In this document: piece by piece, positions 1 through 1,176 of the stretch
Position numbering within the stretch: the first letter of the stretch is position 1
How the letters are laid out: each line of letters opens with the position of its first letter
Origin: a phage
Sequence record: OR846245.1
Direction: 5' to 3' (one strand)
DNA length: 1,176 nucleotides
The notes under the pieces: generated by a model
The model's input: the letters and a program-made list of their open reading frames with translations, nothing else
What the model was told of the DNA's origin: nothing
Databases searched by the model: none
Program-made: the position numbers and the translations under genes

Positions 1-403
1 CCAGCGAACCGCGCGGCCCGCCGATCGTCAGTGTATCGCCTTCACGGGCTTCCATTGCCCAACGGCTGGCTACGCCGCCATCGTGGATAAAGAAATCCAG
101 CGCCAGCTCGCGACGCGCCTCGTCATACAGCGGCGTGTAATCCCTGGAGACCGGACGAACGCCCTCCCCCCAGATAATGCCTTCCTCAGTGACTGTCGGA
201 GGCGTAAAGCGACAGCCTGGCTCAGGGAAAAAAACTTTCGTGTGATCGTCAAAGCCCAGGGAGGTGAAACCGTCCAGCGCCTCGCCGCCAAGTACGATCC
301 GCTGAAATCCTGCGCTAATACGTTCTACCCGCAGAACGGTCAGCTCGCGAAAACGCAGTTCATTACGAACACGCTGTGGATAGCGTGCGGATGATGTCGT
401 CAT
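1..403 (-). CDS. yqjH: Siderophore-interacting protein / NADPH-dependent ferric-chelate reductase (FAD-binding, SIP/ViuB family); 5' part only, the gene continues beyond the window start
   Basis: Minus-strand frame opens at ATG (403..401) and stays open for 134 codons to position 2. An in-frame TAG lies just upstream (436..434), so this is the first possible ATG. Translation begins MTTSSARYPQRVRNELRFRELTVLRVERISAGFQRIVLGGEALDGF... and contains an RDYTP motif typical of the FAD-binding site of SIP-family reductases. It closely resembles my recollection of the E. coli YqjH N-terminus. Not in the ORF track because no stop codon falls inside the window. Confidence 0.85.
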   Translation of the reverse strand, partial: MTTSSARYPQRVRNELRFRELTVLRVERISAGFQRIVLGGEALDGFTSLGFDDHTKVFFPEPGCRFTPPTVTEEGIIWGEGVRPVSRDYTPLYDEARRELALDFFIHDGGVASRWAMEAREGDTLTIGGPRGSL

Positions 404-409
404 TTTTTG

Positions 410-414
410 CCTTC
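410..414 (-). promoter_or_regulatory. Shine-Dalgarno-like GAAGG for yqjH, about 6 nt upstream of the ATG at 403
   Basis: The minus strand reads ...cttcacGAAGGcaaaaaATG, so a purine-rich GAAGG sits at a suitable distance from the start codon. Confidence 0.45.
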
Positions 415-425
415 GTGAAGTAATA

Positions 426-439
426 CGATATATCTAAAT
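426..439. promoter_or_regulatory. Candidate PadR-type (YqjI/NfeR) operator, copy 1: cGATATATCTAAAT with an 8-bp perfect palindrome GATATATC (427..434)
   Basis: The 13-bp GATATATCTAAAT (427..439) is repeated exactly at 610..622. It lies 24-36 bp upstream of the yqjH start codon, around the likely transcription start. The dyad symmetry fits a dimeric winged-helix repressor. Confidence 0.4.
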
Positions 440-482
440 TAAAGTTTTAAATGATAATGATTGTTAATCAGTAAAAATGCAA
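438..482 (-). promoter_or_regulatory. Candidate sigma70 promoter region for yqjH; two alternative -35/-10 assignments
   Basis: Reading the minus strand, option A is TTAACA (462..467), an 18-bp spacer, then TTTAAT (438..443). Option B is TTGCAT (477..482), a 17-bp spacer, then CATTAT (454..459). Both overlap the Fur-box-like site. The sequence alone cannot choose between them. Confidence 0.3.
452..470. promoter_or_regulatory. Fur-box-like site (TGATAATGATTGTTAATCA)
   Basis: Positions 453..461 (GATAATGAT) match the first 9 nt of the canonical 19-bp Fur consensus GATAATGATAATCATTATC exactly. The flanking heptamers TGATAAT and TTAATCA form an imperfect inverted repeat. The site overlaps the candidate yqjH promoter, and E. 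coli yqjH is known to be Fur-repressed. Confidence 0.45.
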
Positions 483-578
483 CTGTTTTTTGATAGTGTT
501 CTGGCAACGCGTCGCTAACTATAACCTTAGGATAAAATGTTATAAATTAATAGATTATATCAAAAATGGCTTTTACCC

Positions 579-606
579 TTGCTAAAACCCATCATTTAGA
601 TATAAA
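579..606 (+). promoter_or_regulatory. Candidate sigma70 promoter for yqjI: -35 TTGCTA (579..584), 16-bp spacer, -10 TATAAA (601..606)
   Basis: Hexamers match the consensus at 4/6 (-35) and 5/6 (-10) with acceptable spacing. The predicted start near 613-615 falls inside the operator-like palindrome 607..620, which would fit autorepression. Other AT-rich hexamers nearby make this assignment tentative. Confidence 0.35.
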
Positions 607-622
607 TTAGATATATCTAAAT
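607..622. promoter_or_regulatory. Candidate PadR-type (YqjI/NfeR) operator, copy 2: 14-bp perfect palindrome TTAGATATATCTAA (607..620) within the repeated GATATATCTAAAT (610..622)
   Basis: Perfect dyad symmetry centred between 613 and 614. It shares the 13-bp motif with copy 1 and sits between the candidate -10 and the yqjI ribosome-binding site. Confidence 0.45.
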
Positions 623-626
623 AAGC

Positions 627-632
627 AGGAGG
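627..632 (+). promoter_or_regulatory. Shine-Dalgarno AGGAGG for yqjI
   Basis: A perfect AGGAGG lies 2 nt before the ATG at 635 and 5 nt before the ATG at 638. Confidence 0.6.
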
Positions 633-634
633 CA

Positions 635-1176
635 ATGATGCAAAATCAACATGAAGGGTGTTGCAAAAACCAGGATCATAAGCACGACGGCTGCTGTAAA
701 GATCGAGAACATCAGCATGAAGGCTGCCATAGCGCGCATCAGCATGAGAACGCCAGTTGCGGCGGCGAACACCGTCACGGACACGGCTGTGGTCGTCATG
801 GACAGGGCGGTGGTCGACGTCAGCGATTTTTTGGCCACGGGGAACTTCGGCTGGTCATTCTTGATATCCTGACCCGGGACGCCAGCCACGGCTATGAACT
901 GATTAAAGCGATAGAAAACCTGACGGGGGGCGGCTATACGCCAAGCGCTGGTGTGATCTACCCTACGCTGGATTTTTTACAGGATCAGCAATTTATCACG
1001 ATTAGCGACGAAGAAGGCGGGCGGAAAAAAATCGCGATTACCGCGAACGGCGCGCAATGGCTTGATGAAAATCGCGAACACCTGACGCATATTCAGGCGC
1101 GGCTAAAAGCCCGTTGTGTGGGCATGGAGTTACGTAAAAATCCGCAGATGAAGCGGGCGCTGGATAACTTCAAGGC
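635..1176 (+). CDS. yqjI: PadR-family winged-helix transcriptional repressor with a His/Cys-rich N-terminal metal-binding extension; 5' part only, continues past the window end (start may be the ATG at 638)
   Basis: Frame 2 is open from the tandem ATG ATG (635/638) to the window end, 180 codons with no stop. Translation begins MMQNQHEGCCKNQDHKHDGCCKDREHQHEGCHSAHQHENASCGGEHRHGHGCGRHGQGGGRRQRFFGHGELRLVILDILTRDASHGYELIKAIENLTGGGYTPSAGVIYPTLDFLQDQQFITISDEEGGRKKIAITANGAQWLDENREHLTHIQARLKARCVGMELRKNPQMKRALDNFK. The stretch from ELRLVILDIL to QDQQFITI is a typical PadR winged helix-turn-helix. The overall architecture and many residues match my recollection of E. coli YqjI. The ORF-track entry 651..872 (+) is in a different frame and is not this gene. 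Confidence 0.85.
   Translation, partial: MMQNQHEGCCKNQDHKHDGCCKDREHQHEGCHSAHQHENASCGGEHRHGHGCGRHGQGGGRRQRFFGHGELRLVILDILTRDASHGYELIKAIENLTGGGYTPSAGVIYPTLDFLQDQQFITISDEEGGRKKIAITANGAQWLDENREHLTHIQARLKARCVGMELRKNPQMKRALDNFK
650..802 (+). other. His/Cys-rich low-complexity segment encoding the putative metal-sensing tail of YqjI
   Basis: By my count, residues 6-56 of the translation contain 12 His and 7 Cys, arranged as degenerate repeats HEGCCK / HDGCCK / HEGCH followed by H-x-H-G-H-G-C. The DNA shows the matching degenerate repeats (catgaagggtgttgcaaa, cacgacggctgctgtaaa, catgaaggctgccat). Confidence 0.6.

Follow-up and report, generated by a model that had tools for sequence, protein, structure and literature searches.

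The listing of open reading frames for this locus raises the question of which of its frames are genes. The window, by which we mean the whole stretch of 1,176 nt analysed here, was reported by the ORF finder to contain exactly four ORFs of at least 60 amino acids, at 70..291(-), 83..394(+), 617..889(-) and 651..872(+), whereas both frames that reach the window edges were omitted. A six-frame stop count revealed that the two longest open stretches, with 144 and 188 codons, are precisely these two omitted frames. They correspond to nfeF (yqjH) and nfeR (yqjI), and the complete-ORF finder misses them because each runs off an edge of the window. The original prediction had claimed that both real genes are absent from the listing, that a finder of complete ORFs skips them due to their truncation, and that the four listed ORFs are artefacts. 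The listing and its coordinates proved correct, and the interpretation is supported. The window is almost certainly the centre of the divergent nfeF-nfeR locus of Salmonella enterica, with both genes truncated by the edges and with four shadow frames as the listed ORFs.

The 5' part of nfeF occupies 1..403(-) and comprises codons 1-134 of about 255. Translation from the ATG at 403..401 yields 134 stop-free codons, and the gene continues past the left edge. The partial product matches PF08021 (FAD_binding_9) with E=1.7e-35 and 122 bits (cut-off 23) over profile positions 1-119 of 120, and it shares 80% protein identity with NfeF/YqjH from E. coli. Residues 87-90 read R-D-Y-T and are kept in the E. 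coli protein; this sequence fits R-x-Y-(S/T), which we take to be the flavin-binding motif of the ferredoxin-reductase-like fold. The C-terminal SIP NAD(P)H-binding domain (PF04954) lies beyond the window and was found in the 255-aa ortholog encoded on a contig of S. enterica serovar Reading (L083); a full 255-aa nfeF with PF08021 and PF04954 is present in L083 and in L003. Among solved SIP structures the part encoded in the window matches 4yhb, 6k2l and 8c4l by sequence. The reductases FscN (4yhb), ViuB (8c4l) and the Shewanella SIP (2gpj) share the N-terminal FAD-binding beta-barrel (E=1e-17 to 2e-08), but they are distant relatives of NfeF, whose NAD(P)H-binding half is located outside the window. 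NfeF is predicted to be a cytoplasmic, NADPH-dependent ferric-siderophore reductase of the SIP family, and the window encodes its N-terminal, FAD-binding half.

The 5' part of nfeR is located at 635..1176(+) and comprises codons 1-180 of about 215 of a PadR-family repressor that is predicted to respond to nickel. From ATG 635 the frame contains 180 stop-free codons and runs past the right edge. The start codon is either ATG 635, as in the Salmonella records, or ATG 638, where the alignment with E. coli NfeR begins. A Shine-Dalgarno sequence, AGGAGG at 626..631(+), is separated by 3 nt from ATG 635 and by 6 nt from ATG 638. Of 13 aligned sequences 12 share its GGAG core, with GAGAAC in C. amalonaticus. 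The partial product matches the PadR profile PF03551 at residues 75-143 (E=3.8e-14, 52.9 bits, cut-off 27). It shows 65% protein identity to NfeR/YqjI from E. coli and 98% identity to a 215-aa PadR protein from S. enterica (P0001). The part encoded in the window consists of an N-terminal tail, the PadR winged helix (75-143) and the first portion of a C-terminal helical region. The orthologs, which have a full length of 207-215 aa, also possess the final 35 residues missing from the window, and these are conserved. The tail, about residues 1-57, is predicted to bind metal and is rich in His and Cys (14 His, 8 Cys) and carries two HxGCCK repeats and an HEGCH motif, which align with the HEGCCK motifs of E. 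coli NfeR. The winged helix-turn-helix is shared with canonical PadR repressors such as 9qbc (solved PadR chains were matched with E=5e-07), but NfeR begins with some 60-70 additional residues, rich in His and Cys, which typical PadR proteins do not possess.

These matches, together with the positional orthology to E. coli nfeF and nfeR, bear out the proposal of a divergent pair consisting of a yqjH-like reductase at 1..403(-) and a yqjI-like PadR repressor at 635..1176(+), and the profile searches with the partial translations returned the families that had been expected. Substitutions relative to E. coli are concentrated at third codon positions in both frames, with 19/19/76 for positions 1, 2 and 3 of nfeF (p=4e-13) and 34/24/99 for nfeR (p=2e-14); in the comparison of 12 orthologous loci the third-position bias reached p values down to 1e-17. 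Straight translations of Citrobacter and E. coli sequences gave apparent stops in the yqjH segment, but these are an artefact of alignment gaps of 1-2 bases at the segment ends, and codon-by-codon projection revealed no new stops in the yqjH frame of the orthologs. Judged by these patterns, purifying selection is confined to the frames of the two real genes.

The window is 97.7% identical at the nucleotide level to the serovar Reading contig and 93% identical to S. enterica subsp. diarizonae. Both genes are complete in these two relatives (nfeF with 255 aa and nfeR with 215 aa), and the contig shows the order rpoD-mug-nfeF-nfeR-MCP-aer-like. Extension beyond the window by means of close relatives recovered both stop codons, as had been anticipated; neither stop codon is part of the window, and the 3' halves of the two genes are deduced from relatives with 93-98% identity. 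A match to the window was found in 5424 of 5426 E. coli genomes, where it is annotated as nfeF/nfeR and the divergent layout is kept. In both species nfeF is transcribed divergently from the PadR gene and lies downstream of rpoD-mug. We also considered that the window might represent a paralogous copy, either decayed or gained by horizontal transfer, with a SIP gene and a PadR pseudogene, and not the functional chromosomal pair. Some E. coli genomes indeed harbor a second copy that is Citrobacter-like and in which the PadR gene is frameshifted, and this copy is the best E. coli megablast match to positions 1-744 of the window (74.9%). In the window, however, neither frame is disrupted anywhere in its 134 or 180 codons and both are under strong purifying selection, the Fur and operator motifs have likewise been preserved, and the sequence is 97.7% identical to a chromosomal S. 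enterica locus in the conserved rpoD-mug-nfeF-nfeR context. A decayed or acquired copy is therefore very improbable, and the window is best read as the functional chromosomal locus.

The four listed ORFs behave differently from the two genes. Frame arithmetic agrees with the original prediction that they are out of frame or antisense: 70..291(-) (73 aa) and 651..872(+) (73 aa) are +1-shifted frames on the strands of nfeF and nfeR, respectively, while 83..394(+) (103 aa) and 617..889(-) (90 aa) are antisense and codon-aligned, the former to nfeF and the latter to the segment of nfeR that is rich in His, Cys and Gly. In their frames the four resemble known shadow ORFs, i.e. spurious long ORFs in alternative frames of real genes, and we noted no difference from these; coding-type conservation was seen in none of the four. 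Searches against Pfam and NCBIfam gave no match near any curated cut-off for the four ORFs, and their exact sequences are absent from a collection of 15 billion proteins. For 70..291(-) and 83..394(+) no family match was obtained with either library. For 617..889(-) both returned sub-threshold noise only (E of at least 0.07, about 8-13 bits compared with cut-offs of 32-275), and for 651..872(+) there was no match in Pfam and noise in NCBIfam (14.5 bits, cut-off 492).

The decisive test for such ORFs is the distribution of substitutions over codon positions, since protein matches in close relatives would reflect no more than DNA identity. The comparison with orthologs showed a non-coding substitution pattern for these ORFs and stops in several orthologs. 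In 70..291(-) the substitutions relative to C. braakii are distributed 8/37/7 over the codon positions, i.e. they fall on position 2, where nfeF has its wobble base; amino acid identity is 38-50%, compared with 79-85% in the real frame, and new stops occur in 5 of 12 orthologs. The corresponding distribution for 83..394(+) is 48/9/10, with the excess on position 1 and with stops in 11 of 12 orthologs. The frame 617..889(-) shows 48/13/13; outside Salmonella its identity drops to 27-51%, and every ortholog from Citrobacter and E. coli carries stops. For 651..872(+) the distribution is 13/42/11 and the identity outside Salmonella 25-44%, and 9 of 10 non-Salmonella orthologs carry stops. Overall, amino acid identity to the orthologs is 25-53% in the listed ORFs versus 73-85% in the real frames, and most non-Salmonella orthologs gain a stop in at least one of the ORFs.

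Could one of them nevertheless be a genuine overlapping or antisense protein-coding gene, with 617..889(-) or 83..394(+) as the best candidates? All four frames are open in the closest relative, S. diarizonae, but this follows from the DNA identity of 93%, and stops already interrupt two of the four in S. arizonae and occur in most orthologs from Citrobacter and E. coli. The 90-aa product of 617..889(-) looks membrane-like; its hydrophobic, Met/Val/Leu/Ala-rich composition simply results from reading His, Cys and Gly codons on the opposite strand. Within the window no stop precedes 83..394(+); its frame extends openly as far as base 2, so that this ORF is itself affected by the edge, and it reaches 202 aa in the S. 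diarizonae ortholog. Stops in a codon-aligned antisense frame arise solely from the rare codons TTA, CTA and TCA, of which the real genes contain one and three; 83..394(+) is open because nfeF has a single codon of this kind, codon 4, which provides the stop of the ORF itself. Permutation of the codons of the two real genes generated 3.2 +/- 1.3 such ORFs; the probability was 0.41 for four or more and 0.46 for a longest ORF of at least 103 aa, so that four ORFs of this size are what is expected by chance. The shadow frames stay open through chance and the codon usage of the real genes. As the substitutions are located mainly on the wobble base of the real gene, the amino acids of the listed ORFs change freely, and neither family matches nor exact copies among 15 billion predicted proteins were found. 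We give a genuine gene among the four hardly any credence, and a shadow ORF that functions as an overlapping micro-protein is essentially excluded. The window illustrates cleanly how, in a short sequence, a track restricted to complete ORFs can conceal genes cut off by an edge and give prominence to shadow frames, and how substitution patterns by codon position tell real from shadow frames at once. The annotation point is correct but routine, and its value is mainly practical.

The spacer between the two genes (404-634) has a length of 231 bp. Several regulatory blocks within it are invariant in 13 sequences from Salmonella, Citrobacter and E. coli, whereas the remaining spacer is divergent. 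An operator-like motif (motif I, ACGATATATCTAAAT, 425..439) adjoins the start of nfeF; its core GATATATCTAAA is invariant in the 13 sequences while the flanks diverge. Motif I recurs at 605-622 as a direct repeat (89% identical, 183 nt spacing); the ATATATCTAAAT-type operator motif is present in two copies 183 bp apart, one per promoter. The operator motif pattern occurs five times, compared with 0.04 occurrences expected by chance. Motif II (594..622) is located just upstream of the nfeR ribosome-binding site and contains a perfect 11-nt inverted repeat, ATTTAGATATA-N7-TATATCTAAAT, with arms that are 100% complementary. The 22-mer GATATAAATTAGATATATCTAA of this motif is invariant in the 13 sequences, and an exact copy was detected in 21 of 81 fetched loci. 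We consider motif I a putative NfeR binding site at the nfeF promoter and motif II a putative extended NfeR autoregulatory site. Given their conservation, the two motifs presumably correspond to the published sites I and II of E. coli YqjI.

Motif II overlaps the likely -10 element TATAAA (601-606), which follows the conserved hexamer TTGCTA (579-584) at a distance of 16 nt. On the minus strand, TTGCAT (482-477) and CATTAT (459-454) form a candidate hexamer pair. The hexamers were read by eye and were not called in a consensus scan of the spacer for promoters and terminators. The scan made a single call, a promoter-like site on the minus strand at 546..518, compared with a mean of 2.0 in shuffled sequences; this site is located in a non-conserved stretch and was rejected. 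An Rfam scan at E<=1 found no RNA families.

A Fur-box-like site of the 7-1-7 type, TGATAATGATTGTTA, is located at 452..466, with its centre some 56 nt upstream of the nfeF start codon. The site agrees with TGATAATNATTATCA at 12 of 14 specified positions, with 0.01 matches expected by chance, and the block AAATGATAATGATTG(T/C)TAAT is invariant across the 13 sequences. Only this shorter 7-1-7 form was matched, as the 19-mer Fur consensus GATAATGATAATCATTATC had no match within 3 mismatches. The site may be a Fur operator that overlaps the likely nfeF promoter. In E. coli, a cluster of Fur sites has been predicted at -59 of yqjH (PMC2189734), and yqjH of S. Typhimurium is reported to be Fur-regulated, with a 3.8-fold rise in a fur mutant (PMC3212961).

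The locus is an already characterised enterobacterial module of iron/nickel cross-talk, in which the NfeF reductase is under the control of Fur and NfeR. By analogy with E. coli, iron-loaded Fur and NfeR would repress nfeF, NfeR would repress its own gene as well, and binding of nickel to NfeR would relieve the repression. According to the summary given in PMC7981267, nfeF of E. coli is repressed by NfeR and nickel lifts this repression; the nickel response is reported for E. coli only. Deletion of nfeR in Klebsiella is reported there to raise nfeF 85-fold.

The biology of the NfeF/NfeR locus is thus already known, and the Salmonella version is an ordinary ortholog. It shares with E. coli K-12 the two protein families, the divergent layout and the gene order on the nfeF side (rpoD-mug-tRNA-Ile-nfeF-nfeR). 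The Fur-box block of K-12 is identical to that of the window, and the same is true of the operator motifs GATATATCTAA(A) and GATATAAATTAGATATATCTAA, which occupy equivalent positions; overall DNA identity is only 68.6%. The E. coli spacer has about 270 bp and contains a GC-rich, REP-like insertion (GCCTTATCCGGCCTACG...), which the window lacks in its spacer of 231 bp. Unlike in E. coli, nfeR and aer are separated in Salmonella by a further chemoreceptor gene. In 16 E. coli genomes the Citrobacter-like second copy mentioned above lies beside a transposase of ISPpu12.

The tail of Salmonella NfeR is 8 residues longer than that of E. coli and has an extra GGEHRHGHG segment. The number of tail repeats differs between genera. 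Repeats of the HxGCCK type occur once in C. farmeri, twice in Salmonella and E. coli and up to four times in some Citrobacter, whereas the tails from Lelliottia and Leclercia contain none and have His only. It is conceivable, but in our estimation rather unlikely, that this variation is a repeat-driven, evolutionarily tunable setting of the metal affinity or selectivity of the repressor. Alignment of the window with Citrobacter orthologs revealed indels of 27-36 nt, and a tandem-repeat search detected a single 21-nt repeat with 2.1 copies at 773-816, within the Gly/His-rich coding region.

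A mechanical ORF list of the window has ten entries of 20 aa or more, and four of the ten reach 60 aa: 70..291 on the minus strand (73 aa), 83..394 on the plus strand (103 aa), 617..889 on the minus strand (90 aa) and 651..872 on the plus strand (73 aa). Exactly these four had been named as the ORF track in the original prediction. The list leaves out any ORF crossing either window end, and the two frames regarded there as the real genes run stop-free to the edges and are missing from it. The nfeF (yqjH) frame at 1..403(-) starts with ATG 403..401 and comprises 134 stop-free codons to the edge, and the nfeR (yqjI) frame at 635..1176(+) comprises 180, starting with the ATG at 635. 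By a six-frame stop count no other frame stays open for as long as these two (144 and 188 codons), and direct reading of the window sequence revealed no other in-frame start upstream for either of them. Both the observation and the interpretation of the original prediction are right.

The partial translations belong, as expected, to the SIP and PadR families. The minus-strand product matches PF08021 (siderophore-interacting FAD-binding) over nearly the full profile (E=1.7e-35, 122 bits, cut-off 23), and residues 75-143 of the plus-strand product match PadR PF03551 (E=3.8e-14, 52.9 bits, cut-off 27). NCBIfam returned PadR-type matches below threshold only for the plus-strand product and no match for the minus-strand product. 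Using a solved-structure search, the minus-strand product was matched to the SIP reductases 4yhb, 6k2l, ViuB 8c4l and 2gpj and the plus-strand product to the PadR chains 9qbc and 9qbd. In BLASTP, identity is 80% to E. coli NfeF (132 residues aligned) and 65% to E. coli NfeR (181 residues aligned); the NfeR alignment takes in the HEGCCK motifs in the N-terminal tail. The nfeR start is a tandem ATG ATG at 635-640; AGGAGG (626-631) precedes the first of these codons by 3 nt and the second by 6 nt. The alignment with E. coli NfeR begins at the second, and Salmonella annotations start at the first.

Relatives were ranked among contigs with one genome per species. The best match was S. enterica subsp. 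diarizonae with 93.2% nucleotide identity across all 1176 bases, followed by subsp. arizonae (89.8%) and then Citrobacter (~71-75%). The protein cluster nearest to NfeR comprises 2007 sequences; its representative, an S. enterica PadR regulator of 215 aa, shows 98% identity. Aligned without gaps, the window and a serovar Reading contig that encodes this regulator are 97.7% identical. The genes called on the contig encode a 255-aa protein (PF08021+PF04954) and the PadR protein of 215 aa, and their neighbours are rpoD, a UDG (mug) gene, a chemoreceptor gene and an aer-like gene. The diarizonae locus likewise contains ORFs of 255 and 215 aa. Extension of the window, from which the stop codons had been anticipated, therefore restores both of them, and the window covers 134 of the 255 codons of nfeF and 180 of the 215 codons of nfeR. 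Sensitive blastn matched the window, at ~69-72% identity, in all but two of the 5426 complete E. coli genomes (5424), and the gene order there is rpoD-mug-tRNA-Ile-nfeF(-)-nfeR(+)-aer.

For an analysis of coding-type conservation the window was aligned with 12 orthologous loci (2 Salmonella subspecies, 9 Citrobacter, E. coli) and substitutions were tallied per codon position. In the real frames they fall mostly at position 3: for example, the comparison with C. braakii gave counts at positions 1/2/3 of 14/12/65 for nfeF and 24/19/94 for nfeR, and that with E. coli 19/19/76 for nfeF and 34/24/99 for nfeR (chi-square p from 1e-13 to 2e-17). Codon-by-codon projection found no new stop in either frame in the 12 orthologs, and amino-acid identity is kept at 73-96%. 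In the track ORFs, substitutions land where the real gene has its wobble base, at position 2 in both +1-shifted same-strand ORFs and at position 1 in both antisense ORFs. In Citrobacter and E. coli the amino-acid identity of the track ORFs is down to 25-53%; new stops appear in 70..291(-) and 83..394(+) as early as S. arizonae, and in 617..889(-) and 651..872(+) in most or all non-Salmonella orthologs. The four track ORFs had no Pfam match and only noise far under the cut-offs in NCBIfam, and their exact sequences are missing from ~15 billion predicted proteins. The view that they are artefacts lacking coding-type conservation was thus borne out.

Coordinate arithmetic also agreed with their description as out of frame or antisense: 70..291(-) and 651..872(+) lie in the +1 frame of nfeF and nfeR, respectively, and 83..394(+) and 617..889(-) in the codon-aligned antisense frame. 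In the latter, a stop requires a TTA, CTA or TCA codon on the sense strand. This happens once in the nfeF part, where codon 4 is TCA and gives 83..394(+) its own stop at 392-394; the nfeR part contains three such codons, all after codon 114. When the codons of both real genes were permuted 3000 times with the spacer held fixed, the list contained 3.2 +/- 1.3 ORFs of 60 aa or longer, with P=0.41 for four or more and P=0.46 for a longest ORF of at least 103 aa. As these controls match the observed number and length, the track ORFs are the product of chance and codon usage. Even the "complete" ORF 83..394(+) is edge-affected, because it has no upstream stop inside the window and the antisense frame reaches 202 aa in diarizonae. 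The genes are already known and the shadow-ORF artefact is well understood, and the locus is a sound warning against annotating from a complete-ORF track.

The spacer (404-634) has diverged more than any other part of the alignment: against diarizonae it has 32 substitutions in 231 bp, above either coding part; in Salmonella it is AT-rich. Five blocks are invariant in 13 of 13 sequences: GATATATCTAAA (427-438), AAATGATAATGATTG(T/C)TAAT (about 449-468), TGCAA (478-482), TTGC (579-582) and GATATAAATTAGATATATCTAA (598-619). The GATATATCTAAA and GATATAAATTAGATATATCTAA blocks share a direct-repeat motif (18 nt at 89% identity, 183 nt apart), and the distal copy lies within a perfect 11-nt inverted repeat, ATTTAGATATA-N7-TATATCTAAAT, at 594-622. 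The 15-mer TAGATATATCTAAAT occurs five times at up to 3 mismatches, with 0.04 expected. Motif I, beside the nfeF start, and motif II, upstream of the nfeR ribosome-binding site, are 182-184 nt apart in 12 fetched loci (Salmonella and Citrobacter among the examples listed) and 217-230 nt apart in 7 others. The published YqjI sites are reportedly two, about 200 bp apart and cooperating, and from the conservation of motifs I and II we take these motifs to be putative equivalents of the two sites. The sequence further suggests putative promoter hexamers for nfeR (TTGCTA 579-584, TATAAA 601-606) and, on the minus strand, for nfeF (TTGCAT 482-477, CATTAT 459-454); a consensus promoter scan called none of them. 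No RNA family was found in the window.

The middle block, AAATGATAATGATTG(T/C)TAAT, is located ~56 nt upstream of the nfeF start codon. It fits the 7-1-7 Fur consensus TGATAATNATTATCA at 2 mismatches (0.01 expected); the 19-mer Fur consensus gave no match to it at up to 3 mismatches. Its position agrees with the Fur-site cluster that PMC2189734 predicts for E. coli yqjH at -59, and also with PMC3212961, in which yqjH was derepressed 3.8-fold in a fur mutant of S. Typhimurium. In genomic SELEX the nfeF-nfeR spacer was the single E. coli target of PepA, an aminopeptidase and DNA-binding protein (PMC8249747).

The locus is the Salmonella ortholog of the characterised E. coli nfeF-nfeR module and the window shows all those defining features of NfeF and NfeR that can be read from the sequence of their 5' parts and the spacer. 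By orthology, nfeF would be repressed by Fe-Fur and by NfeR, which would also repress its own promoter; excess nickel would bind the His/Cys-rich tail of NfeR and release the protein, and NfeF would then reduce ferric siderophores in the cytoplasm. As summarised in PMC7981267, NfeR of E. coli represses nfeF and nickel relieves the repression; deletion of nfeR in Klebsiella raised nfeF 85-fold (PMC7981267). A summary in PMC6460284 assigns NfeF a role in freeing iron from enterobactin breakdown products.

The differences from the E. coli module are ordinary. The Salmonella spacer is shorter and lacks a GC-rich REP-like insertion, …GCCTTATCCGGCCTACGTGTGAGATGAG…, of the E. coli spacer (about 2000-2100 in E. 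coli locus L002, versus window 540-565), which is also missing in 9 of 9 aligned Citrobacter sequences. The metal-binding tail of Salmonella NfeR is slightly longer, and Salmonella has an extra chemoreceptor gene downstream. This convergent gene (522-528 aa, TarH/HAMP/MCPsignal), which E. coli does not have between nfeR and aer, overlaps the 3' end of nfeR with its own 3' end by 4 nt (3645-3648 in both the diarizonae locus L003 and the Reading contig L083).

HxGCCK-type repeats of the N-terminal NfeR tail (window 635-830; alignment A1) differ in number between genera: C. farmeri has one, Salmonella and E. coli have two each, and some Citrobacter have three to four; the tails of Lelliottia, Leclercia and Huaxiibacter contain no Cys and are His-rich only. 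Indels of 27-36 nt separate the window from Citrobacter orthologs. Within the Gly/His-rich coding stretch of nfeR, a 21-nt tandem repeat with 2.1 copies (CGTCACGGACACGGCGGTGGT, 773-816) could give rise to in-frame differences in length. Sixteen E. coli genomes, strain AW1.7 among them, contain a second SIP gene with a frameshifted PadR pseudogene (locus L001, NZ_CP061749.1 4026810-4029739). This copy is Citrobacter-like (81% to C. werkmanii). It is flanked by a glycerone kinase gene on one side and an ISPpu12-family transposase on the other, and thus looks like a horizontally acquired remnant.
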